Below, in pieces: positions 2,664-32,111 of a stretch of DNA of 64,000 nucleotides. The first letter of the stretch is position 1. Each line of letters begins with the position of its first letter. The position numbers were made by a program, and so were the translations under genes. The notes beneath the pieces were generated by a model. That model was not told the DNA's origin. It saw only the letters and a list, made by a program, of their open reading frames with translations, and did no database searches. The stretch covers positions 32,001-96,000 of IMG/VR virus record IMGVR_UViG_3300009503_000019; one strand, 5' to 3'. Source of the DNA: a virus.

Positions 2664-2972
2664 ATGTGGAAAGAAATTTTTGATGAAGCATATGTAAAGT
2701 TAGCAAAGAAGCTAACTTATCGAGAGCGTCAGCAACTCCCAGACAGTGCATTTGCTATACCTGAAGAACGTAGATATCCTATTATGGATCGAGCGCATGC
2801 GAAAAATGCTCTTGCACGAGTAGCTCAGTTTGGAACTCCTGAAGAGAGACAGAGAGTGCGTGAAGCGGTTTACAGAAGATATCCTGATTTGAAAGAGCAG
2901 CGTGAAGAAAAAATTGGTCGTCCAATGTCTCGTAGAGAGTTAAAAGAAAAAAAGAAACTCCCAAAAAAATAA
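2664..2972 (+). CDS. Small basic protein, DUF6582-like domain, with MW..IF..AY.KLA leader
   Basis: LPDSAFAIPEERRYPIMDRAHAKNALARV resembles the small helical DUF6582-type domain found in phage head proteins (recalled, not searched). Confidence 0.6.
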   Translation: MWKEIFDEAYVKLAKKLTYRERQQLPDSAFAIPEERRYPIMDRAHAKNALARVAQFGTPEERQRVREAVYRRYPDLKEQREEKIGRPMSRRELKEKKKLPKK

Positions 2973-2984
2973 AAAATTAATTAT

Positions 2985-3779
2985 TTAATCCATTGCATAA
3001 GTATTTTCAGGCATTGATGCAATAATTTCTTCTAAATCTGGTAATTTTTTGGTTTTTTTCATAGTTTCCAGATGTTTTCTTATTTCAATAGCCCTACAAT
3101 ATCTTTTTACTTCTTCTGGGCAATAAGCACATAATGGACCGAATTCTGCAATTGAATTCGATATATCTTTTGAACCTTCATGAATTGCTTTAATTCTGTC
3201 AATTATAAAGTTTTTAATTTCTGTAGAGTTTTCAATGTCAACTTGAAATCTTTTTACTCCACGCATTGAAATATATATTAATTCTAATCGCTTAATATTG
3301 TCACTATGAGTTTTTTCATACATATATTTGTATAAATTTACTTGTTTTTTATGTGCTTCATATGGATGATATGGAAATTCCGATGTTGTTTTGTAATCTC
3401 TTAAAATTTTATTTTTGATATCAATTTCATCAATTCTTCCTACAATTTTTTCATTGTGTAATAAAAGCTGTACATCATATTCAGTTAATAAATTTTTATT
3501 ACTATGAAATTCTACTGCTAAATGTAATCCAGTTCCTCTAAATTTAAAAAATAGATTTTCAGGTTTTTCTAAGTAATCAATTTGTCTTTTCAATACTTTT
3601 TGTCTTGGACATACTGTCAAATCAGTAACATGAATATCTTCATCCATTCTTTCTTTTATCATACTCCTTAATATACTTGCCGTATAATCACATGGATTAT
3701 CTCCACTTTCTGCACATGTTAAACATTCTTTAACAGTAAATACATTTTTTCTTTTATTACACATTATTCCTTTTATCAT
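2985..3779 (-). CDS. Cas4-like PD-(D/E)xK exonuclease with Fe-S cysteines
   Basis: IHVTDLTVCPRQ, GRIDEID, RDYKTT, QVNLY and C-terminal CAYCP...YC; extra N-terminal CxxC. Confidence 0.8.
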   Translation of the reverse strand: MIKGIMCNKRKNVFTVKECLTCAESGDNPCDYTASILRSMIKERMDEDIHVTDLTVCPRQKVLKRQIDYLEKPENLFFKFRGTGLHLAVEFHSNKNLLTEYDVQLLLHNEKIVGRIDEIDIKNKILRDYKTTSEFPYHPYEAHKKQVNLYKYMYEKTHSDNIKRLELIYISMRGVKRFQVDIENSTEIKNFIIDRIKAIHEGSKDISNSIAEFGPLCAYCPEEVKRYCRAIEIRKHLETMKKTKKLPDLEEIIASMPENTYAMD

Positions 3780-4545
3780 TATATCCTCCTTGTACTAATC
3801 TGATCATATTATAAAATTCATCACAATCATAGAATTTATATTTATCCCCAAAAAATATTCCAAGATATTTAATAGTTTTTTTAGTGAGTATCTTAATTAT
3901 GAAAGATGTTGCTAATGATGCTCCAATGATATTCCATATTGGAAGTATACCATTTCCACAATGTACTTTTGACACGTTATTCTTTGATAACATTATATGC
4001 CATGGGACTATGTCAGTAATTTTGAATCCATCAAATATTTGTTTACCTGATTTATGTCTTATATTATAATATTGTGAGGAATGACTTATTGGAAATAATA
4101 GAGTTTGCCCTCCATTTTCATGAACGCCAGTATCGATGATTGCGATAATTTTTGAAATTAAAAAACGTGAACAATGATGGAATATTTTCAGTCGGGTTTC
4201 GAAGTTATCAACACACAAAACAATAATTGCATACATATTTAAAAAATTATTAATTGCATATTCTATTTTGTTTATTATATAGTACAAATTTGAGTATATT
4301 TTTGAATATCTTTGTGCTATGACCTCAGCTTTATATTTTTTTAAATCACTTTTTATAAAGTTCTGATTTAATAAATTTTTTTCTTCTACTCTATCAAAAT
4401 CTATAACAACAATATCTATATTTTTTAAATTTAATGCAGTTAGATTTCTTGCTAGAAAATTAGTGAGATAACTTCCAGTCGCTCCTGCGCCAACTATAAG
4501 TATGTTTATAGGGGCATCATAATCTTGTAAGTTAGCATATAGCAT
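3757..4545 (-). CDS. ThiF/E1-like adenylating enzyme
   Basis: GAGATG nucleotide loop, DFDRVEEKNLLNQNF, KAEV, CVDN..TR, IDTG, candidate catalytic Cys in VHCG. Confidence 0.85.
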   Translation of the reverse strand: MLYANLQDYDAPINILIVGAGATGSYLTNFLARNLTALNLKNIDIVVIDFDRVEEKNLLNQNFIKSDLKKYKAEVIAQRYSKIYSNLYYIINKIEYAINNFLNMYAIIVLCVDNFETRLKIFHHCSRFLISKIIAIIDTGVHENGGQTLLFPISHSSQYYNIRHKSGKQIFDGFKITDIVPWHIMLSKNNVSKVHCGNGILPIWNIIGASLATSFIIKILTKKTIKYLGIFFGDKYKFYDCDEFYNMIRLVQGGYNDKRNNV

Positions 4546-4546
4546 T

Positions 4547-5056
4547 TTATTCCTCCAGTGCGAGAAATTTTAAAAATACTTCTATGTTAATTTTTTTATA
4601 TAGAAAATTTGGTTTTTGAGAGAACGGCATTAATATAAATTTTTGAACTGCATCTTGTGCTGAATGCGGTATATAGTTGTTATAGCATATAGCTTTAAAT
4701 TCAGGTATTTCTTGAAATCCATCAATTTGATTTGGCATTTGTGGGAATATGCCTATAGATTCATTAGGAGTATTTCTATCTATTATACCAAAAAGGAATG
4801 TCTTTTTATTTTTTAAAACAATAAATAATTTTAAATTAGATGGTATTTCAATTTTTTCTATTATCTTATTATCGTTATTACCATTAATATAATACAGGTA
4901 TTTACTATCAACAAATTTGATGTCCAGAGATTTAATGAATTTATTTTTAAATAATATACTTAGCGGAACAATTTTAGTTCCTTTTATAGTATGGATATAT
5001 GCTACTTTATTTGTGTCGGGGTATATATCCATTTTCTTTGATTTATTCATTATCAT
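4547..5056 (-). CDS. Putative prokaryotic E2-like (family D / PRTRC protein B-like) conjugating enzyme
   Basis: FPQMPNQIDG...AICYN...FILMPFS resembles the APFxNxxxDGxICWG...FFxSPF pattern; adjacent to E1. Confidence 0.55.
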   Translation of the reverse strand: MIMNKSKKMDIYPDTNKVAYIHTIKGTKIVPLSILFKNKFIKSLDIKFVDSKYLYYINGNNDNKIIEKIEIPSNLKLFIVLKNKKTFLFGIIDRNTPNESIGIFPQMPNQIDGFQEIPEFKAICYNNYIPHSAQDAVQKFILMPFSQKPNFLYKKINIEVFLKFLALEE

Positions 5057-5291
5057 CCTCCCATTTGATTGTTATGCCTGTTCCGTTTAATACGAATTTG
5101 ATAAAGGAGTTAATATTTTTATCCCAAAGATATTTTTCATTAGTCAATGTATTTTTTATTTTTTCTGGATATATGAGGATTAAATGTGGGAATAGAAAGA
5201 TATTATATTTTTCAAATGCGGTGCGTAATCGTTCATAGAATTTTGATTTTTCCAAAATTTTATATAAATTCTTCGTCGGTTTCATAATCAC
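5043..5291 (-). CDS. Hypothetical protein in RT-E1-E2 operon
   Basis: ORF overlaps both neighbours. Confidence 0.55.
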   Translation of the reverse strand: MIMKPTKNLYKILEKSKFYERLRTAFEKYNIFLFPHLILIYPEKIKNTLTNEKYLWDKNINSFIKFVLNGTGITIKWEDDNE

Positions 5292-5649
5292 CCTCCAAAG
5301 ACTTTAATTGATTTGCAATTTCTTTTAAAACGTCTATATTTTTATGTATTTCAATAAAAAAATTTATTGCTTTATAAAGATCTTCTTTCAATTTAGGATC
5401 CAATGATAAATCCGGATCGAATTCTAATTTGAAATTATATCCCTTTTCACCAACAATTAATCCGACTTTATAAATAGAATCATCAATTTTTTCTATATTA
5501 TTTTCGTCAATTTTTATGTTAAGTCCGTCTAATTCATGAATAATTTCTTTTTTAATTTCTTCTTCTGACAGGGTATCATTCAATTCCAATACAATTTCAA
5601 AATCTGTGCTTGTTGGGTAGTTAGGACCTACTATTTTAATTTCTTTCAT
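5260..5649 (-). CDS. Putative ubiquitin-like protein (PRTRC protein C-like) with C-terminal extension
   Basis: First 70 aa end IYKVGLIVGEKG, resembling the ..F.RAVGTKG end of PRTRC-C/Prok-Ub proteins; AGGAGG RBS. Confidence 0.5.
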   Translation of the reverse strand: MKEIKIVGPNYPTSTDFEIVLELNDTLSEEEIKKEIIHELDGLNIKIDENNIEKIDDSIYKVGLIVGEKGYNFKLEFDPDLSLDPKLKEDLYKAINFFIEIHKNIDVLKEIANQLKSLEGDYETDEEFI

Positions 5650-5667
5650 TTTAGTACCTCCTTATTT

Positions 5668-6477
5668 TTATTTGTTCATTATTTCTATAATATTTTTCCA
5701 TGAACGGTATCCCATCAATTTTTTGTGAAGATTTTCATCATAATTTTTTTCTAAATGATGCTGTAATCCACGTATGGTATGAGAATGCTTCTGTCGAATT
5801 TTTGCTACGATTTTTCCATCATAATCATCTCTATATATAGTGAATCCAAGCATTTTTACAAATGGTTTGTTTTCAGATTTATATGGAATTTTTCTACATT
5901 TGAATTTTGATATTTTGAAACCGTAGTTTAGTATTGAAGCTACTAAGTATTTATTCATTTTTTTATCTGAGTGAAACATATAAAAATTATCTATATAATT
6001 TATAATTGCTACTGCTTTATATTTAAAAATATAATCAAACATTCTGAATAATTTAAATAAAGCAAATGAAGACAATCTAGGCGAAGTTGGTGCGCCTTGA
6101 GGCAATATTAATTTTCCTTTATATTCAACAAAACATTTTTCTACAATATTTATAAATTTTGAATTGCTCCATTTGTAGAAAATATTTAATAGATAATCTG
6201 GAGTCACATTCGTAAAAAAATTTTTGATATCACACGCTGTTAAGAATATTTCATCGGGATTAGGATCGTAAAATTGTGCGTTAATGAATTTAAATATGTA
6301 GCTTGGAGAACATTTATGTTGACCCAATATTATAGTGTTTTTTAATTTTGGATATTTAATTATTGCTAATTCATGATGTAGAATTTCTTTTTGTTGTTTT
6401 TTTAAATCATCATCTGGAATATGGAGGATTCTAAATCCTCCTTTCCTTTTTGGGATTTTAATAATTTTATACGGCAT
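5668..6477 (-). CDS. Compact reverse transcriptase (retron/UG-like) with YIDN in place of YxDD
   Basis: IPKRKGGFRILHIPDDDLKKQQ, DIKNFF, LPQGAPTSPRLS, NYIDNF, MLGF; GGAGG RBS. Confidence 0.85.
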   Translation of the reverse strand: MPYKIIKIPKRKGGFRILHIPDDDLKKQQKEILHHELAIIKYPKLKNTIILGQHKCSPSYIFKFINAQFYDPNPDEIFLTACDIKNFFTNVTPDYLLNIFYKWSNSKFINIVEKCFVEYKGKLILPQGAPTSPRLSSFALFKLFRMFDYIFKYKAVAIINYIDNFYMFHSDKKMNKYLVASILNYGFKISKFKCRKIPYKSENKPFVKMLGFTIYRDDYDGKIVAKIRQKHSHTIRGLQHHLEKNYDENLHKKLMGYRSWKNIIEIMNK

Positions 6478-6542
6478 GTTTCCTCCGAAATCTGGATTTA
6501 TTATTTGAATTTATAACAAAAAATTGATAAATTTAATGTCAA

Positions 6543-9500
6543 ATGCTGAAAGGGTATATTGAAGCTATTCAGAATCTCTTTCCCATTGATTCCCCAAATT
6601 ATACAATTAATGTATCTAATATAACGCCTAAGATCAAAGAAGATGTTTTTATTCCTGAGAATATAAAAAAAATGAAATTGGAAGGAAAGATTTTGACTAC
6701 TCCTATATATGCAGATGTTACAATTACTGACAAAAATGGTAAAGTTATTAGTTCCAGGAAACAGATGAAGATTGCAGAAATACCTGCACTTATTCCTGCA
6801 ACAAATTCTTATCTTGGAGGTAAAGGTAAAGAAATTACTATATTGGGTCAATTTAGATTCAAGCCAGGAATTTATACTATAATTCCATCTTCTGGTAATG
6901 TTAAAACAACTTTTCATTTAAAAGGTACGAGTTTTCATCTGACAAGCGATGCAGGAAAATTATATTTCACTGTAGATTCAAAACATTTCGCTATCTATCC
7001 AATATTAAAATTTTTTGGTATTACTGATAATGATATTATTAATAATTTTGGAAATAAATTTTTAGAGGATAATAAAATAGATATTTCTCCTGCAGAAATG
7101 GAAAGATTGATAAAGAGATTTTACAAAAATATTTCAAGAGATCAACGTTCCGAAGATGAGATTAGTATCAATGATATTATAACATATTTTTCAGGTAATA
7201 TTTTTGATCCGAATGTAAACAAAGTCACATTAGGTCAGGATTTTTCTCAATTAAATAAAGAAACATTATTAGCAGCTATTAAGAAATTTTTAAATGTTTC
7301 TACTGGAGTTGAACCACCAGATTCAAAAGATTTATTAATATTTAAAAGATTTCATAATGTAAATGATTTTATTAAAGAACGTATAGAAGGTCTTAAATGG
7401 CAATTAAAAAAGAAAATTCAGCGAAATCTTGAATTACATCCAGAGGAGATTCGCCGGGTTTTACCTACTGGATTATTGTCTAAACCATCGTTTGAATTAT
7501 TGAATTCTTCAGTAGCGTCTATGGAAAAATATACTAATCCCGCATCAATATTATCGGCAATGACGAAAATGACTTATCTTGGGGAAGGAGGATTACAGAC
7601 TGAATATGCCGCTACACCAGAAATGCGAAATTTCAATTTTTCTATGCTTTCAACCTTAGATCCTATACAAATGCCAGAGTCTGAGAAAATTGGGTTAGTT
7701 TTTCATGCTGCTTTGGGTGCTAATGTAGATAATCAAGGTAATATAACTAAAATTGTTTTCAATCATAAAACTGGAAAATATGAAACAATAAGTGGAACTG
7801 ATTTCTGGATAAAAAATATTGCTTTTCCTGATCAATATGAAAACGGTAAATTCAAGAATCCAAATTCAGTTAAAGTTATGAATGAAGGTAAAATAAAATA
7901 TGTAAAATCTAAAGATGTAGATTATATTCTTCCTATGAGTACTTCTTTTTCAATGCTTAGTTCGTTAATTCCAATGATTTCATCATTCCATCCTACAAGA
8001 GCTTTAATTGCTTCTAAAATGATTGGGCAAGCTTTGGCATTAAAGAATAAAGAAGCGCCTTTAGTTCAAAGTGAGATCCCTTCAGAATTATTAGAAATCA
8101 GGAAACAATTACATCCTGAATTGACTGGTGCCTTATCTGATCATTTAGAACATTCTAATTCCTTTGAAGAATTATTAGGTGCAAAATATTCTGTTGTTTC
8201 CCCAGTTAATGGAACGGTTACGTTAGTATCCAAAGATGAAATTGTCATTACTGATAAAAAAGGAGAAAAATACAGATTTCCTCTATATAATAATTTTCCC
8301 GTATATCCAGATTCTTTTATTCATCAGGAGCCTATAGTAAAAGTTGGTGATAAAGTTTCAAAAGGGATGCCATTAGCTAAAAGTAATTTTACTGATGGTA
8401 AAACATTAGCATTAGGTACTAATTTATTAACGGCTTATATACCTTTTAAAGGGTATAATTATGAAGATGCTATAGTTATATCAGAGAGTGCATCAAAAAA
8501 ATTGACTTCAGAAAGAATTATACATGAATATTTTGAAATTCGAGAGGGTATGATTCTTGATAAAAATAAATTTAGAGCAATTTTTCCAACATTATTATTA
8601 GAAGAAAATGCACGCAAATTAGATGATGATGGTGTAGTCAAAAAAGGAGCAATTGTTAAAAAAGGAGAAATTTTAATTGCGGCATTAATGCCTCGTATTA
8701 TAACTCCAGATGAATATCAACTTATGCGTATACACAGGAAATTAGTGCCTAAGTATCGTGATGCTTCATTAGTATGGAATAGGGAGAACGACGGAGAAGT
8801 TATAGAAGTGCGCAAAACAAGACATTCAATAAGTTTATTAATAAAAACATCAGATCCTGCTGAGATTGGTGATAAATTGGTAGGACGATTTGGTGAAAAA
8901 GGGCTCATTGCTTATATAGTTCCAGATAGTGAAATGCCAAGAACTAAAGATGGAAAGGTAATTGATGTCATTTTTAATCCATTAAGTGTTATTTCAAGAA
9001 TTAATACTGGACAATTAGTAGAACTTGCATTAGGTAAAGTTGCTCAGAAACAAGGAAAACCAATTTATGTTCCTTTATTCACAAAACAAAATTATGTAGA
9101 ATATGCAAAAAAATTATTGAAAGATCATGGATTATCCGACACCGAAACATTAATTGATCCAAAAACTGGAAAAGAAATACCTAATGTGATGGTTGGTCCA
9201 AAATATATATTTAAATTGGAACATGAGATTAAAGATAAATTAGATGCTCGTTACAAAGGTTCTTACGATATGGATTTAGCACCTGCTAGACAAGGAGAAG
9301 AAGGGGCAAAAGCATTAGATACTTATACTGCATATGGATTATTTGCACATGGAGCACTAGCAAATTTAAAAGAAATGGCAACATATAAAGCAGAGAAGAA
9401 TGATGCATTCTGGGATGCAATTGAAAATGGTTTTATGTTGCCAGCACCTAAACCTACATTTGCAATGGATAAATTTTTAGCAATGTTAAAATCTGCAGGG

Positions 9501-12500
9501 ATAAATGTTGAAAAACAAGGTACAACTTTTAGATTATTACCCCTAACTGATAAAGATGTCACTGAAATTGCAAAAATAAAAATAGAAAATCCGAGGACGG
9601 TATCTGGTGCAGAATTAAAACCCGAAAAAGGAGGTTTATTTGACCCGGCATTAGGAGGATTAACAGGAACACGCTGGGGATATATTCAATTAGCTGAACC
9701 GATGCCAAATCCTATCGTAGAAAAAGCATTATTACAAATATTACAATTAAGTTCTGCTCAATTTGAAGATTTGATTGCTGGTAAAACTGTTAATGGTATT
9801 CAAGGAATAGAAGGATTAAAACAATACTTAAAAAATTTAGATATTGATAAATTAATTACTCAGTATCAAGAAATGGCAAAGAATGCTCGTTTAGATGAAT
9901 TGGATAAATATAATAGAATAATAAGATTTTTAAAAGGACTAAAAGAAGCTAAAATAAAACCAGAATCATTAATAATAACAAAAATACCAGTAATTCCACC
10001 AAAAATGAGACCTATTTATGTGAAAGATGATCAGGTTATTTATTCTCCATTTAATGACTTGTATAAGCATTTATTGATGGCAAATGAATTATTAGAAAGA
10101 ACAAAAGAACTTCCTGAAGAACATCGTGCTTCTATACGATTAAAAGCTTATGAAGCCTTAAAAGCTATTGCAGGATTAACTGACCCCATTTCACCTGCAT
10201 TTTCAAAACGGCCTGTTCAAGGAATTTTATCAATGATTGCAGGTCCAACTCCTAAATTAGGATATTTTCAGTCTAAACTTGCACGTAAAGAGCAAGATTT
10301 AGTAGGAAGAACTGCAATTATTCCAGAACCAGATTTACATCCTGATGAAGTTGGATTGCCGTATGAGATTGCATGGAAGATATTTGAACCATTTGTTATT
10401 CGTAAACTTATTCAGCAAGGATATACAAAAATTCAAGCTGTTAAGAATGTAGAAGATAGAACTCCTATAGCAAAAGCTGCATTAGAAGCAGTTGCAAAAG
10501 AAAGATTAGTTTTATTAAATAGAGCACCAAGTTTGCATAAATATAATATACTTGCATTCAAACCCAGACTCATTGAAGGAAATGCAATGAAAATACCTCC
10601 ATTAGTTGTTGTTGGCTTTAATGCTGATTTTGATGGCGATGAGCAGCTAGGGTCGATATTGATTTCAGTTAAAAAAGATTTTAAATTACAGAAATGGTAT
10701 TTAGATTTGATAAAAACTGGGGCCAGAATAATGTTCGATAAAAATGCGAAAATACCCATTAAATCAGATCGTGAATATTTTATTATTAATCTTGCGGATT
10801 TTCCGAGACTTCATTTAGTAGCTTCTAAAAATCATATAGATTTTTATGCAGTTCCAGACGATATTGAAGTACTGGCATACGACGAGAAAATTCATACGAT
10901 TTCATGGCAAAAAGCGACTTCATGGTCGTTACATCATAAAAGAAAAATTTGTTTTATCAATTTGAAATCAGGCAAACAAATTGTGTCTGATGATGATCCA
11001 AGGGCAGTTTATGGGATAGATCCAGTTACATTAGAATACGGACGGTGGAGACCTGCAGAAAGTATTGGTAAATTAGTGCCGGTTGTAAAAAATTTGAAAT
11101 TGCAAGAATATGTAAAGCAAATAAGCACCAAAGGTTGTCCTTACTGGAAATTGAAGAATTGTCTAAAAGAAACAATAGAATTGAATGAGGAATTTGGTTA
11201 CTTACTTGGTTATATTATAGGCGACGGCTGGATATCTTATACAAAAGACGAAGAAAAAAATGTAAGCATTGCTATTGATCCAAAAAATTCAGAGCTCAAA
11301 AAACATTTGATTTCAATAACGAAAAAACTTTTCAATAAAAAATATAATCTCATTAGTGAACAAAAAGTATCAAAATCAAAGTGGCAATCTTCCAAAATAA
11401 CAATCAATTCCAAACAACTTGCATGGTTAATTTCTCCATGGATTGGTAAAAATGCAGAAAATAAACATTTACCTCCATTTACATTAATTTCTCCGGAAGA
11501 ATTCAGACGAGGATTATTAGCTGGTTTAATTGATTCAGATGGTAGCATCTCAATCTCTCATGCTAAGTCCAAACCACAATTACTTATAAATTTATCAACT
11601 GCAAGCATACGACTGGCACAGGAAATACAATTGCTAGCAAAAAGTTTAGGAATCCCTGCTTCTATAACTGCATATAATGGTGGAATGAAAAATAGCAAAA
11701 ATTATATGATTAATTTTTCTAATTATCATTTCCAGAAAGCTAATTTGAATATTAAACATCCTGAAAAAAGAAGAAAATTGTTATCAATTTCGATTGAATC
11801 TTCTCCTGGTTTGATGTCTCATGATTTAGTTCCATTTAATTCAACACTGGCGGAAATTATTATGAAACGAATAAATCGCAATAAAGAATGGAGTTTGTAT
11901 GTAATAGTGCAGAGGTATAAAAATTTGAATTATATAACTCGTTCTTCAGCATTAAAAATTCTAAAAATTGTTGATAATGATGATCCATTATTTTTGAGAT
12001 GGAAGCAGATTGTATTGAATGATTCAATAACATGGGATCCCGTAGTTTCTTATGAACAAACTGATATTGAAGAAGATGGTTATGATATCACCGTTCCAGG
12101 ATACGAAACATTTATGAACATTGAAGGAGTGATTTTATCAAACACAATGACTATTCATACTCCTGTAACTCAGGAAGCATTAGAAGAAGCACGTAGACTT
12201 TTGCCTTCAAATAACTGGGTACATGAAGCAAAAGGGACTATATTATTGATGCCACGTCATGAGGCAATTATTGGAATCTACAGATTGACTTCTGAAGGAC
12301 GCCAATTGAATATTACTTTCAACAATGAAAAGGAAGTGGAGGATGCTTATAAAGCAAATAAGATAAATTTCAATGATATTGTCAATGTCAAGGGAATAGG
12401 CAGGACGTCGTTTGGAAGAATAATTGTTAATAAAGTTTTACCTCCTGAATTGAGAGATTATAAATCTCAAATTGATGGTTCCAAATTACATGACATATTG

Positions 12501-14039
12501 ATGAAAATTTTTAGACGAGACCAAAAATTAGGAACTGATATTTCACATTATCTTGACAAAATAGGTAAAGAATTTGCATACTTATCTGGATATAGTTTAA
12601 GTTTGGATGATATAACACCAATTGATTTATCTGATATAAATCGTAAAATCAGAGAAACTATGCCGAAATTATCTTCTGATAAAGAAAGGCAAAAATTTTT
12701 ATCAGAATTAGCAGATAAAATAGATCAAAGGGTAATGTCTTCTAAAAGCCGATTAGTAGAGGCAATTAAATCTCGTGCAAGAGGAAAAGTTATTGATGCT
12801 AGACAAATTATAGGTGCACCTATTGTTGCAACTGATATTAATGACAATATTATACCCGCTCCTGTGAATACCAGTTATGCAGCAGGAATGTCTTTTTCAG
12901 ATTGGTTTAAATCAATATTTGGAGGAAGAAAAGCGGCAATAGATAAAGTAACTTCAGTGAGTGAACCTGGGATGATGACTAAAGAATTATTTTCAGCAAT
13001 GTCTTCATTTCGTATAGTAGAGCATGATTGCGGAACTAAAAATGGTGTTGAAATGGATTTAAATGAAGCGGATGCGTTAGATTATTGTTTAGCAGAAAAT
13101 ATTTATTCTCATGGAAGATTAATAGCAAAAAGGAATTCACCATTAACTTCAGATGTTGTAAATGCCTTAGTTGCACACAAAATAAATAGAGTTAAAGTTA
13201 GAACACCATTAACATGTGAATCCATAGATGGAGTTTGTCAATTATGTTATGGATTGGATAAATTCGGGCAATTTCCATCAATTGGAGAATATGTTGGAAT
13301 TAAAGCTGCACAATATATAGGCGAGCCGATGACACAATTAATTCTTTCAAGAGCCCATTTTGGTGGAACCAAAGGTGCACCATCATTACAGGGATATAAA
13401 TTATTTGAAAACATATTAAATTTTTCACCTTCAATTCGTCCTCGTGCAACACTTGCTAAATTAGATGGGAGAGTTCAAAAAATTTTGATTAATCCGGACG
13501 GATCTAAAGATGTGTTAATAGATGGAGTTAGTCATCCTGTTTCAAGAGAAAGTGTGGTTACAGTTAAAACTGGAGAAATTGTAAAAAAAGGACAACAAAT
13601 TTCAGAAGGAATTCCGCATCCTGTAGATGTATATGCTACTAGAGGGATGATGGAAATGAGAAAATATTTGTCAGAGCAATTAAGAAAAATATATTATGAT
13701 AATGGACTTAAAGTGGATAAAAGAATGTTTGATGTATTGGCAAAGGCTATGACAAATACCGGAATTATTACTGATCCTGGTGATTCTGATTATATAATAG
13801 GAGATAAAGTTTCAATAGATAAAATAGAAAATAAAAATAAAGAATTGAAGCACCCAATAAAATATACACCTGTTTTTCGTGGATTGCCCCATCAAGTCTT
13901 GCTTTCAACAGATTGGTTGAATAGAATTTCAAGAAAGGATATAAAAAATACATTGGTAGAAGGAACGATTAGGCAGTGGACTGGAGATATTTCAAGGTAT
14001 CCAATACCTGCATTCGCTTATGGAGTTGAGCTAAAGTGA
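6543..14039 (+). CDS. rpoBC: DNA-directed RNA polymerase, fused beta-beta' subunits, intein-containing
   Basis: Beta motifs GDKLVGRFGEKG, NPLSVISRIN, YIFKLEH. Beta' motifs GGLFDP, PVIPPKMRP, LNRAPSLHK, NADFDGD, DCG, CQLCYG, GEPMTQ. Confidence 0.95.
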   Translation: MLKGYIEAIQNLFPIDSPNYTINVSNITPKIKEDVFIPENIKKMKLEGKILTTPIYADVTITDKNGKVISSRKQMKIAEIPALIPATNSYLGGKGKEITILGQFRFKPGIYTIIPSSGNVKTTFHLKGTSFHLTSDAGKLYFTVDSKHFAIYPILKFFGITDNDIINNFGNKFLEDNKIDISPAEMERLIKRFYKNISRDQRSEDEISINDIITYFSGNIFDPNVNKVTLGQDFSQLNKETLLAAIKKFLNVSTGVEPPDSKDLLIFKRFHNVNDFIKERIEGLKWQLKKKIQRNLELHPEEIRRVLPTGLLSKPSFELLNSSVASMEKYTNPASILSAMTKMTYLGEGGLQTEYAATPEMRNFNFSMLSTLDPIQMPESEKIGLVFHAALGANVDNQGNITKIVFNHKTGKYETISGTDFWIKNIAFPDQYENGKFKNPNSVKVMNEGKIKYVKSKDVDYILPMSTSFSMLSSLIPMISSFHPTRALIASKMIGQALALKNKEAPLVQSEIPSELLEIRKQLHPELTGALSDHLEHSNSFEELLGAKYSVVSPVNGTVTLVSKDEIVITDKKGEKYRFPLYNNFPVYPDSFIHQEPIVKVGDKVSKGMPLAKSNFTDGKTLALGTNLLTAYIPFKGYNYEDAIVISESASKKLTSERIIHEYFEIREGMILDKNKFRAIFPTLLLEENARKLDDDGVVKKGAIVKKGEILIAALMPRIITPDEYQLMRIHRKLVPKYRDASLVWNRENDGEVIEVRKTRHSISLLIKTSDPAEIGDKLVGRFGEKGLIAYIVPDSEMPRTKDGKVIDVIFNPLSVISRINTGQLVELALGKVAQKQGKPIYVPLFTKQNYVEYAKKLLKDHGLSDTETLIDPKTGKEIPNVMVGPKYIFKLEHEIKDKLDARYKGSYDMDLAPARQGEEGAKALDTYTAYGLFAHGALANLKEMATYKAEKNDAFWDAIENGFMLPAPKPTFAMDKFLAMLKSAGINVEKQGTTFRLLPLTDKDVTEIAKIKIENPRTVSGAELKPEKGGLFDPALGGLTGTRWGYIQLAEPMPNPIVEKALLQILQLSSAQFEDLIAGKTVNGIQGIEGLKQYLKNLDIDKLITQYQEMAKNARLDELDKYNRIIRFLKGLKEAKIKPESLIITKIPVIPPKMRPIYVKDDQVIYSPFNDLYKHLLMANELLERTKELPEEHRASIRLKAYEALKAIAGLTDPISPAFSKRPVQGILSMIAGPTPKLGYFQSKLARKEQDLVGRTAIIPEPDLHPDEVGLPYEIAWKIFEPFVIRKLIQQGYTKIQAVKNVEDRTPIAKAALEAVAKERLVLLNRAPSLHKYNILAFKPRLIEGNAMKIPPLVVVGFNADFDGDEQLGSILISVKKDFKLQKWYLDLIKTGARIMFDKNAKIPIKSDREYFIINLADFPRLHLVASKNHIDFYAVPDDIEVLAYDEKIHTISWQKATSWSLHHKRKICFINLKSGKQIVSDDDPRAVYGIDPVTLEYGRWRPAESIGKLVPVVKNLKLQEYVKQISTKGCPYWKLKNCLKETIELNEEFGYLLGYIIGDGWISYTKDEEKNVSIAIDPKNSELKKHLISITKKLFNKKYNLISEQKVSKSKWQSSKITINSKQLAWLISPWIGKNAENKHLPPFTLISPEEFRRGLLAGLIDSDGSISISHAKSKPQLLINLSTASIRLAQEIQLLAKSLGIPASITAYNGGMKNSKNYMINFSNYHFQKANLNIKHPEKRRKLLSISIESSPGLMSHDLVPFNSTLAEIIMKRINRNKEWSLYVIVQRYKNLNYITRSSALKILKIVDNDDPLFLRWKQIVLNDSITWDPVVSYEQTDIEEDGYDITVPGYETFMNIEGVILSNTMTIHTPVTQEALEEARRLLPSNNWVHEAKGTILLMPRHEAIIGIYRLTSEGRQLNITFNNEKEVEDAYKANKINFNDIVNVKGIGRTSFGRIIVNKVLPPELRDYKSQIDGSKLHDILMKIFRRDQKLGTDISHYLDKIGKEFAYLSGYSLSLDDITPIDLSDINRKIRETMPKLSSDKERQKFLSELADKIDQRVMSSKSRLVEAIKSRARGKVIDARQIIGAPIVATDINDNIIPAPVNTSYAAGMSFSDWFKSIFGGRKAAIDKVTSVSEPGMMTKELFSAMSSFRIVEHDCGTKNGVEMDLNEADALDYCLAENIYSHGRLIAKRNSPLTSDVVNALVAHKINRVKVRTPLTCESIDGVCQLCYGLDKFGQFPSIGEYVGIKAAQYIGEPMTQLILSRAHFGGTKGAPSLQGYKLFENILNFSPSIRPRATLAKLDGRVQKILINPDGSKDVLIDGVSHPVSRESVVTVKTGEIVKKGQQISEGIPHPVDVYATRGMMEMRKYLSEQLRKIYYDNGLKVDKRMFDVLAKAMTNTGIITDPGDSDYIIGDKVSIDKIENKNKELKHPIKYTPVFRGLPHQVLLSTDWLNRISRKDIKNTLVEGTIRQWTGDISRYPIPAFAYGVELK
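10641..12143 (+). mobile_element. Intein with LAGLIDADG homing endonuclease (501 aa) in RNAP active-site motif
   Basis: Insert between NADFDGD and TMTIHTP. Ends GYDITVPGYETFMNIEGVILSN/T. Contains LLGYIIGDG and LLAGLIDSDG motifs. Confidence 0.9.
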
Positions 14040-14506
14040 TTGTATGTAAAAATTATACTATAGTTTCTGGTGTTGGTAGAGATGAAGATGAACTTGTTGC
14101 ATTTGATAAAGCATTAAAAAGTGCAGGATTGCATAGATTTAATTTAGTGCCTGTTTCAAGTGTGTTTCCTACTTTAGCTGAATATCATCCGCCAAGAGAT
14201 TTGAAGGAACTTGATCGTGGGGCAATCATTCATGTTGTTTTGAGTAAAATAAATGTGAAAAAAGAATTTGTAGATATATCGGCAGGAATTTGTTTAGCAA
14301 TTTCCAAAATAAGTGGTGGAGGGATCATAAGTGAATATTCGGGAGAAGTAAATAAGGAAAAATGTAAATCTATTCTAAGGGAAAGAGCCAATAAAATTGC
14401 AGAAACTCACGATCTTTTTGATATGACTATGGAATTTGAAATAATGAGTGCAAAATCTAATCCTGTAACTTATACTTGTTGTATAGCGGCAGTAGTTTTA
14501 TGGTGA
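14036..14506 (+). CDS. pdaD: Pyruvoyl-dependent arginine decarboxylase
   Basis: AFDKALKSAGLHRFNLVPVSSVFP with Ser-Ser self-cleavage site; IISEYSG glutamate. Confidence 0.85.
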   Translation: MIVCKNYTIVSGVGRDEDELVAFDKALKSAGLHRFNLVPVSSVFPTLAEYHPPRDLKELDRGAIIHVVLSKINVKKEFVDISAGICLAISKISGGGIISEYSGEVNKEKCKSILRERANKIAETHDLFDMTMEFEIMSAKSNPVTYTCCIAAVVLW

Positions 14507-29588: not shown

Positions 29589-29917
29589 CAGGACCAGAAA
29601 AAATAAGAACTTTATTTAAAGTAGCTTCACAAGTGATAATTAAACTTGCAAATGAGAATAAACAATTGAAAGCTAAATTAGATTATTATGAGAAAAGGGC
29701 TAAAGCGGAGAAAATAGTGGATAAATTGATTCGTGCTGGGCATCTTTCAGAATTTCAAAAAGAAGCAAAGATAAATGAATTGATGAAAGATGATCTCAAA
29801 GCATGGGAAAAAGCAGCTTCTTTAGTATCGACAATGACTTCGTTAGGAGAAACCGTATCTCCAGTTCAATCAAATGATGCAGAAAATGAACTCATTAAAG
29901 CTTTATTGAGTTCGTAA
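29585..29917 (+). CDS. Coiled-coil scaffold-like protein
   Basis: KVAS, KLANENKQLKAKL coiled coil, directly upstream of decoration/MCP genes. Confidence 0.55.
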   Translation: MTGPEKIRTLFKVASQVIIKLANENKQLKAKLDYYEKRAKAEKIVDKLIRAGHLSEFQKEAKINELMKDDLKAWEKAASLVSTMTSLGETVSPVQSNDAENELIKALLSS

Positions 29918-29938
29918 AAAAAAGAAGGAGGTTAAAAT

Positions 29939-31841: not shown

Positions 31842-32111
31842 ATGTATAATTATTTTCTAGCACAAGCTTTAATTAAAGAAGCAACGGCGTTAGAGCTTTT
31901 AAGGGAAGCGCGATTATTAAAATTAGCTGCTCGTGAAAGTTCTCTAACTCCTGAAGAAAAACTTCGTCTAATAGGACGTGGTGCATTATATGGAGGCCTA
32001 GTAGGACTTCCAGTTGCAATATCTGGCATAGTAGCTAAAGATCCAGAACTTGCAGCAATACCTATAGGAACTGCAATTTTAGGTTCTATTGTATCAAGAT
32101 CACTATTTTGA
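31842..32111 (+). CDS. KEATA-leader paralog with two hydrophobic helices
   Basis: QALIKEATALELLREARLLKLA leader. Confidence 0.65.
   Translation: MYNYFLAQALIKEATALELLREARLLKLAARESSLTPEEKLRLIGRGALYGGLVGLPVAISGIVAKDPELAAIPIGTAILGSIVSRSLF

Follow-up and report, generated by a model that had tools for sequence, protein, structure and literature searches.

Reverse transcriptase genes recurrently linked to a PRTRC-like ubiquitin-like conjugation cassette in phage genomes

Introduction

What connects a reverse transcriptase (RT) with the enzymes of ubiquitin-like protein (Ubl) conjugation in the genome of a phage? This question is raised by six minus-strand genes of the window analysed here, a stretch of 64,000 nucleotides (positions 32,001 to 96,000 of the IMG/VR record IMGVR_UViG_3300009503_000019). 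The window comes from a phage genome (G000) of 121,041 bp in a single contig, whose genes include those of a large terminase of the gpA type and of an RNA polymerase (RNAP) with beta and beta' fused. The genes code for an RT, a Ubl-like protein, a small conserved protein, an E2-like protein, an E1-like protein and a Cas4-like nuclease (Table 1). Research on phage-bacteria conflict is very active on both retrons and bacterial ubiquitin-like systems, each treated so far as a host defence of its own; here, the two kinds of system are joined in one conserved cassette carried by phages, not by hosts. Full-text literature searches, which were not exhaustive, gave no paper linking an RT to a set of E1, E2, JAB and Ubl genes. 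The survey reported below shows that the RT and an E1/E2 cassette co-occur repeatedly across unrelated phage lineages, and that the operon of the window is a reduced and rearranged member of a widespread phage cassette. This cassette is made up of Ubl, Prok-E2_D, JAB and an E1 resembling that of the PRTRC (ParB-related, ThiF-related cassette), and has an RT in about one quarter of its loci. We lean slightly towards the view that this PRTRC-like Ubl cascade is functionally coupled to a retron-type RT/RNA part and acts in phage-host or phage-phage conflict.

Recurrence of the RT with the conjugation cassette

Two pattern-limited scans were made over the 2.9 million contigs of IMG/VR, one with a profile of aligned E1 sequences, by which 212 phage contigs were confirmed, and the other with an alignment of RTs, by which 111 were confirmed; the best 80 loci of each were analysed. 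A pattern scan using the RT sequence alone gave no relatives, whereas the alignment-based scan did. The order Prok-E2_D, JAB-containing protein, E1 is found in about 70 of the 80 E1 loci, and the cassette proteins match PRTRC_B, PRTRC_A, PRTRC_C and PRTRC_ThiF and no other families. A retron-like RT lies within 7 kb in 22 of the 80 E1-anchored loci; from the other side, E1 lies within 10 kb in 17 of the 80 RT-anchored loci, 11 of them also with Prok-E2_D, and the RT-E1 pairs are co-oriented in 44 cases out of 44. At least four gene orders have been found: [Ubl]-E2-JAB-E1-RT, where 0-60 nt separate E1 from RT in eight loci; RT-E2-JAB-E1, in which RT and E2 overlap by 3-48 nt; E1-RT alone; and the RT-Ubl-x-E2-E1-Cas4 order of the window. 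Such short gaps after E1 and overlaps with E2 suggest translational coupling. On the RT tree, whose backbone is unresolved, the E1-linked RTs are spread over at least eight clades. The sequence-only reading of the locus had taken the six genes for a candidate new system and had proposed a neighbourhood survey as its test. The co-occurrence of RT homologues with E1 and E2 genes elsewhere is borne out by these counts; the six-gene set as such does not recur, and the Cas4-like gene is a feature of a small lineage that stands outside the recurrent module.

One alternative is that the two parts are neighbours with no shared mechanism. The RT, with or without RNAs, would then be an independent retron-like accessory element that repeatedly lands or persists beside the Ubl cassette, since both would occupy one and the same early region, variable and co-directional, of large phage genomes. 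This would fit the absence of the RT from 58 of the 80 cassette loci and from seven of seven whole records, as well as the 63 of 80 RT loci that have no E1 within 10 kb. Moreover, in one large group the RT is located 3.8-6.2 kb from E1, past an opposite-strand block, and in the phage of the window the candidate RNAs described below are not beside the RT. On the other hand, the RT directly adjoins or overlaps E1 or E2 in at least 17 loci with varied orders, the pairs invariably share one strand, and the linkage survives both rearrangement and divergence to about 20-30% protein identity. Finally, with 212 E1 and 111 RT contigs among 2.9 million, chance co-location is very unlikely. Mere neighbourhood is, in our judgement, an unlikely explanation.

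The cassette in cultured phages

Cultured phages carry the cassette in a form that lacks the RT. In Salmonella phage Arash, the genes for Ubl (gp251c), Prok-E2_D (gp248c), JAB (gp247c) and E1 (gp246c) are followed by an opposite-strand block of the gene families c4, c3, c5 and c6 and then by a PAAR spike gene; the Vibrio phages D69, D148 and D181 also carry the cassette, with a poly-Ubl. No RVT_1 match was obtained in Arash or D69, and no cultured phage with both RT and cassette was found, the RT matches among isolates (Klebsiella P2-like, Staphylococcus, Listeria jumbo phages) never coinciding with E1. These RT-less phages make part of the cassette testable now.

In many phages the cassette is found at a constant position next to genes of the tail or baseplate, and the Ubl/E2/JAB/E1 set might accordingly serve the assembly or maturation of the tail or baseplate, like the lambda proteins gpI (Ubl) and gpK (JAB), the RT being unrelated. 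A Ubl and JAB pair has indeed been described in phage tail assembly (Iyer et al., 2006; PMC1779556). The cassette abuts the conserved block c4-c3-c5-c6 in about 35 loci, this block is annotated as structural in Arash, where the spike gene comes next, and the genome studied here has a c3 homologue close to the operon. In addition, the E2 and E1 of Arash have been annotated as structural from virion mass spectrometry (PMC10585845). However, the proteome of this virion amounts to 116 proteins and includes metabolic enzymes such as ribonucleotide reductases and RNA ligases (PMC10585845), so that it is weak evidence of a structural role, although it does show that the cassette proteins are made. 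A virion function also leaves the recurrent RT unexplained, and the operon of the window adjoins the RNAP gene and not structural genes. We consider a role confined to virion assembly quite unlikely.

Organization and conservation of the operon

The six minus-strand genes form one operon. The RT and Ubl genes are 18 nt apart, the next two junctions are overlaps of 32 and then 14 nt, a single nt separates the E2 and E1 genes, and the start of the Cas4-like gene overlaps the E1 stop by 23 nt; a GGAGG ribosome site precedes all six of them. The operon is divergent from the gene of a 2498-aa fused beta-beta' RNAP starting 65 nt away. This layout, with open reading frames overlapping or 1-18 nt apart, agrees with the one given by the sequence-only reading, whose calls of an RT, an E1/ThiF protein and a Cas4-like nuclease also held in the profile searches described below; its Ubl and E2 calls held at the level of predicted fold and of profile-profile match, respectively. 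The complete gene order is kept in L001-L004 (RT identity 66%) and the E2-E1-Cas4 portion in L009-L013 (E1 identity 52-54%), all of which are kin of the window's phage within the same lineage, the conservation of the operon spanning relatives at 52-67% identity. No match to the region was obtained by blastn among 50,697 phage records, and the public runs that contain the operon are hot-spring metagenomes.

Table 1. Location of the operon and of the other features mentioned in the text. Positions without a prefix are those of the window.
Feature	Position	Strand	Remarks
RT, 269 aa	5668-6477	minus	RVT_1 and retron RT models
Ubl-like protein (putative pro-Ubl), 129 aa	5260-5649	minus	predicted beta-grasp, GEKG motif
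Conserved small protein, 82 aa	5043-5291	minus	position kept in relatives
E2-like protein, 169 aa	4547-5056	minus	profile-profile match, PN...C motif
E1-like protein (ThiF fold), 262 aa	3757-4545	minus	PF00899, PRTRC_ThiF clade
Cas4-like PD-(D/E)XK nuclease, 264 aa	2985-3779	minus	PDDEXK_1, Cas4 models
Divergent intergenic region RT/RNAP, 65 nt	6478-6542		too short for a retron non-coding RNA
RNAP	6543-14039	plus	single protein with intein
Pyruvoyl-dependent arginine decarboxylase	14036-14506	plus	PF01862, 6.5e-34
DUF6582 gene of the window	2664-2972	plus	beside the Cas4-like gene
DUF6582 gene of relatives	L001:13531-14514	minus	327 aa in L001-L004
LigD 3'-phosphoesterase/ligase protein, 473 aa	39516-40937	minus
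Distal JAB homologue, 221 aa	G000 102275-102940	minus	profile search, E 2.3e-25
JAB/AAA+ ATPase pair	G000:C1 100,584-102,940 (L176:2585-4941)	minus	JAB stop overlaps ATPase start
Intergenic region of 277 nt with tandem RNA units	G000:C1 29,649-29,925 (L177:2649-2925)	minus	operon strand
Di- and poly-Ubl genes	L041:3526-3876; L044:2357-2779; L048:3024-3449; L174:3388-4179 (Vibrio phage D69)		upstream of Prok-E2_D/JAB/E1
Short-motif and reverse-complement clusters	L015:11770-12291; L048:11747-12396; L062:11722-12185

E1-like protein and Cas4-like nuclease

The E1-like protein matches the ThiF family at 1.1e-21, and its best family is PRTRC_ThiF (TIGR03736; 8.4e-20, 71.1 bits against a cut-off of 144.75), which is also preferred by all 19 aligned homologues. 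Its profile matches the solved structures of ThiF and of the SUMO, UBA5 and NEDD8 E1 proteins at 1e-10 to 1e-8; the profile is required for this, phmmer with the single sequence giving no match in the PDB. With the P-loop GAGATGS and, invariant among homologues, GxGxxG, D49, D51, N57, Q61, K72, CVDN..R, D138 and C196, the protein carries an adenylation domain with the predicted nucleotide-binding and catalytic residues. The conserved Cys196 of E1 and Cys124 of the E2-like protein are the predicted candidates for thioester formation. Relatives of the phage-type E1 (about 40% identity) are also present in 333 plasmid records, 134 of them from Bacillus; the eight records listed are all of 220-240 kb, for example NZ_CP013278.1 (Bacillus thuringiensis, 235 kb), and such plasmids may be phage-plasmids.

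The nuclease matches PDDEXK_1 (9.7e-9), phrog_1706 (9e-18), the PADLOC Cas4 model (3e-11) and TIGR00372 (1e-8, 35.1 bits against an equivalog cut-off of 65). Its invariant residues are D117, D128-x-K130, Q146xxxY150, C57 and C217xxC220x7C228, the four cysteines being predicted to hold a 4Fe-4S cluster. It is not in a CRISPR-cas context, since no cas1, cas2 or CRISPR array was seen and its neighbours are E1 and a DUF6582 gene. A hidden Markov model built from the lineage and run on the E1- and RT-anchored loci placed the Cas4-like gene next to E1 in this lineage only, and an hhalign comparison of the protein with 18 neighbour families of other cassettes gave none above 20%.

Ubl, E2-like and 82-aa proteins

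Neither the 129-aa Ubl-like protein nor the 169-aa E2-like protein has a direct match in Pfam, NCBIfam, PHROG or PADLOC, so their identities derive from profile-profile comparison, predicted structure and motifs. An AlphaFold2 model of the former, made with five sequences, has residues 1-64 at a predicted local distance difference test (pLDDT) score of 81-93 with the topology b-b-a-b-b, followed by a disordered stretch (67-74) and helices. The modelled domain resembles GB1 and a long homogeneous list of Ubl domains in VIA-align (Z 4.6-6.0, root-mean-square deviation 2-3 Å), and Foldseek gives probabilities of up to 0.96 with E values above 0.09; in addition, an ESM Atlas model resembles Ufm1, DWNN and PRTRC-C. 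The sequence GLIVGEKG is invariant at residues 63-70, and the homologue P0178 has an insertion directly after GEKG. The motif is followed by some 59 aa that make up a helical, acidic tail with DEEFI at its end. In other phages, the small proteins encoded upstream of Prok-E2_D, one of which weakly matches PRTRC_C, end in G(T/S/N/D)KG (G-x-K-G), and those of L041, L044 and L048 are head-to-tail di-Ubls; each repeat of the di- and poly-Ubls ends in TGTKG or AGTKG, which implies processing at that glycine. Given the beta-grasp model, the invariant GEKG and these GxKG-ending counterparts, the 129-aa protein looks like a pro-Ubl that would need cleavage after G70. A relationship of its tail to family c14, with which it shares an acidic-Phe-aliphatic tip, was considered and is unsupported, no hhalign probability exceeding 20%.

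The E2-like family was aligned by hhalign over 151 columns with the phage Prok-E2_D family (probability 67.7%, E 4.9e-5), 45 of whose 49 members match PF14460 (best 2.6e-34). The invariant P108-N109, C124 and MPFS align with PFxN, C and SPFN of Prok-E2_D, and none of 18 other neighbour families exceeded 20% against the E2-like profile. Structure was of little help, the AlphaFold2 model being poor (pLDDT 56), with no Foldseek match in the PDB below E 0.35 and no usable match in the ESM Atlas. The view that the 169-aa protein is a diverged, short relative of Prok-E2_D/PRTRC-B with Cys124 as candidate catalytic residue is thus moderately supported by profile and motif. The E2 and Ubl calls made from the letters alone are in this way sustained by the distant alignment and the PN...C124 motif in one case, and by the confident beta-grasp model and GEKG in the other; direct profile matches are missing for both. 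Finally, homologues of 80-82 aa of the 82-aa protein occupy the same position between the Ubl and E2 genes in L001-L004 and L009-L011; no profile match was obtained for it in Pfam, NCBIfam, PHROG or PADLOC, and no hhalign match above 20% to 18 neighbour families of other cassettes.

The reverse transcriptase

The RT matches RVT_1 (Pfam, 9.1e-13), and its best NCBIfam match is the retron St85 RT (1.4e-18, 67 bits, the family cut-off being 235 bits); the retron RT models of PADLOC match it at 1e-17 to 1e-13. The protein begins at RT motif 1 and keeps the motif A aspartate (D83) and motif B (LPQGAPTSP). Its motif C has YIDN in place of YxDD; this form is common to all five lineage members (53-68% identity) and is paralleled by YVDN in P0006 and YGDN in L056; most E1-linked RTs retain YADD. 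Distant relatives have YADD together with a retron-like xTGxVVN motif, whereas the window RT has MLG at the VTG position. With only 65 nt upstream and 18 nt downstream of the gene, there is no adjacent msr-msd. A diversity-generating retroelement was rejected, as a self-BLAST of the 121-kb genome gave no repeat touching the operon region, that is, no template or variable repeats. In one phage group, the stretch between the tail-gene block and the RT contains clusters of a short motif, such as CTTCCGCACTT or GTGTCCAGTT, and, a few hundred nt further on, clusters of its reverse complement.

The unusual motif C might mean that the RT of this lineage is catalytically dead and retained as an RNA- or protein-binding scaffold or as a regulator of the Ubl machinery, an explanation that can hold together with the others. 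The replacement of the second aspartate by asparagine in all the lineage members and in the two more distant proteins speaks for it, and D186 substitutions inactivate the RT of HIV-1. On the contrary, GDN and ADN variants of motif C are active in some viral RNA polymerases, and the motif A aspartate, motif B, the first aspartate of motif C and a downstream glycine and lysine have remained invariant among lineage RTs at 53-68% identity. The prevalence of YADD among the E1-linked RTs likewise argues against a generally inactive partner, and we give the dead-enzyme explanation a slim chance.

Distal JAB/AAA+ pair and tandem RNAs

No JAB gene is present within the six-gene operon. A profile search gave a single homologue of the cassette JAB in the genome, beyond the bounds of the window and 64 kb away from the operon. 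It keeps an intact JAMM motif (E...HSH...SGTDD) and matches PRTRC_A (1.1e-8) and Prok-JAB (8e-4), both below cut-off; an intact distal JAB would make a peptidase available to process the pro-Ubl. The stop of this gene overlaps the start of that of a 566-aa classic AAA+ ATPase (PF00004, 1e-29), a pairing reminiscent of Rpn11 with the proteasomal ATPases. A pattern scan of metagenome contigs for relatives of the distal JAB found none. A DUF3150 protein is encoded about 1.2 kb downstream of the ATPase gene.

Another distal element is a 277-nt intergenic region on the operon strand, 5 kb beyond the Cas4-like gene and about 2.1 kb before the start of the window. Two tandem RNA units lie within it (G000 29,667-29,918), and each of them has a terminal stem of 9 bp formed by inverted repeats, one hairpin that is conserved and a second, long one that is variable. 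Three lineage members keep the pair, which in L001/L002 and L009 is at a syntenic place beside gene family c3. In the model-fitted alignment all cells (100%) are paired, double compensatory changes occur in 8 of the 17 pairs and the covariation score is 0.443, compared with at most 0.126 for slid controls; the long hairpins are wholly different in sequence with the pairing retained, and the fold z-scores range from -6.6 to -9.2. The tandem units have, by analogy, the layout of retron msr-msd RNAs. An Rfam scan of the window brought only a tRNA to the gathering threshold and no retron family, and the RNA model (R1) found units only within the lineage, which provides no sequence link to the RNAs of other lineages. 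L132, from another lineage and with E1 and RT side by side, has an array of three tandem units 0.5 kb downstream of its RT, each about 170 nt long and laid out in the same manner (z = -10.2); in a direct-repeat scan near the RTs of 19 other loci, a clear tandem array was seen in L132 only.

Neighbouring genes

The RNAP that faces the operon is a single protein in which the NADFDGD loop is followed by a LAGLIDADG intein. As the RNAP of the relative L005 has 1995 aa and no intein matches, the presence of the intein varies within the lineage. The gene that immediately follows that of the RNAP encodes a pyruvoyl-dependent arginine decarboxylase and is conserved in relatives. In the window, L009 and L012, the DUF6582 gene has a product of 101-104 aa; in L001-L004 this gene, with Intein_splicing and HNH_3 matches, appears to host an intein. 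Elsewhere in the window, a protein combines a LigD 3'-phosphoesterase domain with an ATP-dependent DNA ligase domain.

A proposed coupling of tagging and reverse transcription

From the gene identities, the operon structure, the co-occurrence and the conserved RNA structure, we infer the following biochemistry and biological role. JAB would cut the pro-Ubl after G70 of GEKG, E1 would adenylate this glycine, and the Ubl would be transferred as a thioester to Cys124 of E2 and conjugated to one or more target proteins. The RT would probably copy the tandem RNAs into retron-like small DNA, and the RT/RNA part could sense, regulate or direct the tagging, in the way that RT and multicopy single-stranded DNA do for retron effectors. 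The setting would likely be a conflict between phage and host or between phages.

Several points weigh against this coupling. The RT is optional for the cassette, as none of five jumbo phage records and neither of two isolates has RVT_1, and many of the surveyed loci share ancestry, so that the counts overstate the number of independent events. The fixed place of the cassette by tail or baseplate genes could mean a morphogenetic role and not one in conflict. Regarding the proteins, the window RT may be altered or inactive given its YIDN. Similarly, the fold scores of the Ubl model (Z of 6 or less) may reflect just a common arrangement, and hhalign of the whole Ubl, its N-domain and its tail against 18 neighbour families of other cassettes gave none above 20%. 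The moderately supported E2 call combines an hhalign probability of 68% with no direct Pfam match and a failed structure model. Finally, the link between the RNAs and the RT, 5 kb apart, is purely one of architecture and analogy, and among the public runs listed for the operon there is no RNA run.

Should the coupling be functional, a protein-tagging effector may be under the control of a retron-like RT/RNA sensor, or the RT under that of tagging; neither arrangement is described in the literature searched. The finding would also provide a first approach to the function of the PRTRC-type E1/E2/JAB/Ubl sets that mobile elements carry, and the window offers a natural dissection of the cassette showing which of its parts are separable. 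The functions put forward by the sequence-only reading, namely protein-linked DNA, tagging of the RT or of a host protein, and counter-defence, are speculative. That the activated C-terminus of the Ubl is joined to cDNA, or that a Ubl-tagged RT primes DNA, with the Cas4-like nuclease trimming a covalent protein-nucleic acid product, is very improbable, although such a Ubl-protein-DNA conjugate, if true, would be a new kind of macromolecule in phage-host conflict.

Comparison with known systems

The variant found in the window is distinct: its JAB and RNAs are unlinked, its Ubl has a C-terminal tail, its Cas4-like nuclease is coupled to E1 and its RT has YIDN. The nuclease itself is similar to the Cas4/RecB-family exonucleases of phages in its PD-(D/E)XK motifs, QxxxY and four 4Fe-4S cysteines, and differs from Cas4 in its score (35 against 65 bits) and in being translationally coupled to the E1 gene.

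The closest likeness is to the PRTRC cassette, to which, as far as we know, no function has been assigned since 2006. The window E1 scores best to PRTRC_ThiF; in the cassettes of other phages, E2, JAB and Ubl score only to PRTRC_B, PRTRC_A and PRTRC_C, the order is E2-JAB-E1 and the Ubl ends in G-x-K-G. On the other hand, all the phage scores are below the NCBIfam cut-offs (TIGR03734-03742), PRTRC belongs to plasmids and integrative conjugative elements and not to phages, and the window set adds an RT, non-coding RNAs and a Cas4-like nuclease and has its JAB unlinked. No ParB family matched among the seven open reading frames scanned, the rest of the genome not having been scanned for ParB.

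A second comparison is with the retrons, of which 13 types are reportedly distinguished by Mestre et al. in 2020; we know of none described with E1/E2/Ubl accessory genes. Retron RT models are the best matches of the window RT, its relatives carry the xTGxVVN motif, the candidate RNAs have the terminal inverted-repeat stem, conserved hairpin and long variable hairpin, and the logic of an RT, an RNA and accessory proteins is shared. The differences are the 67 bits against a cut-off of 235, the YIDN of motif C, the tandem RNAs 5 kb from the RT, and the carrier, a lytic-type large phage.

The Bil (BilABCD) and Bub operons likewise unite a separate Ubl, E2, E1 and JAB-type peptidase in one set, with a Ubl that needs a free C-terminal glycine (PMC10557695, PMC11601596). 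Their protein families are distinct, the E1 profile matching BubCD only at 1e-5, and they are bacterial anti-phage operons, whereas the system of the window is encoded by a phage and includes an RT. As for Ubl-type defence, PADLOC returned only weak matches to the E1-E2 of the cyclic oligonucleotide-based anti-phage signalling system (CBASS).

Type II CBASS was first noticed in genomes as an operon of E2+E1, JAB and a pol-beta nucleotidyltransferase (Iyer et al., 2006; PMC1779556). It consists of a CD-NTase, Cap2 (E1-E2) and Cap3 (JAB). The window differs from it in having an RT and not a CD-NTase, separate E1 and E2 proteins and a dedicated Ubl; moreover, the C-terminus of the RT (...IMNK) lacks a terminal glycine, which makes the RT itself an improbable substrate for activation. 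What the two share is the genetic coupling of an enzyme that polymerises nucleotides with E1, E2 and JAB, and type II CBASS is therefore a precedent for a conjugation set that regulates a nucleotide polymerase.

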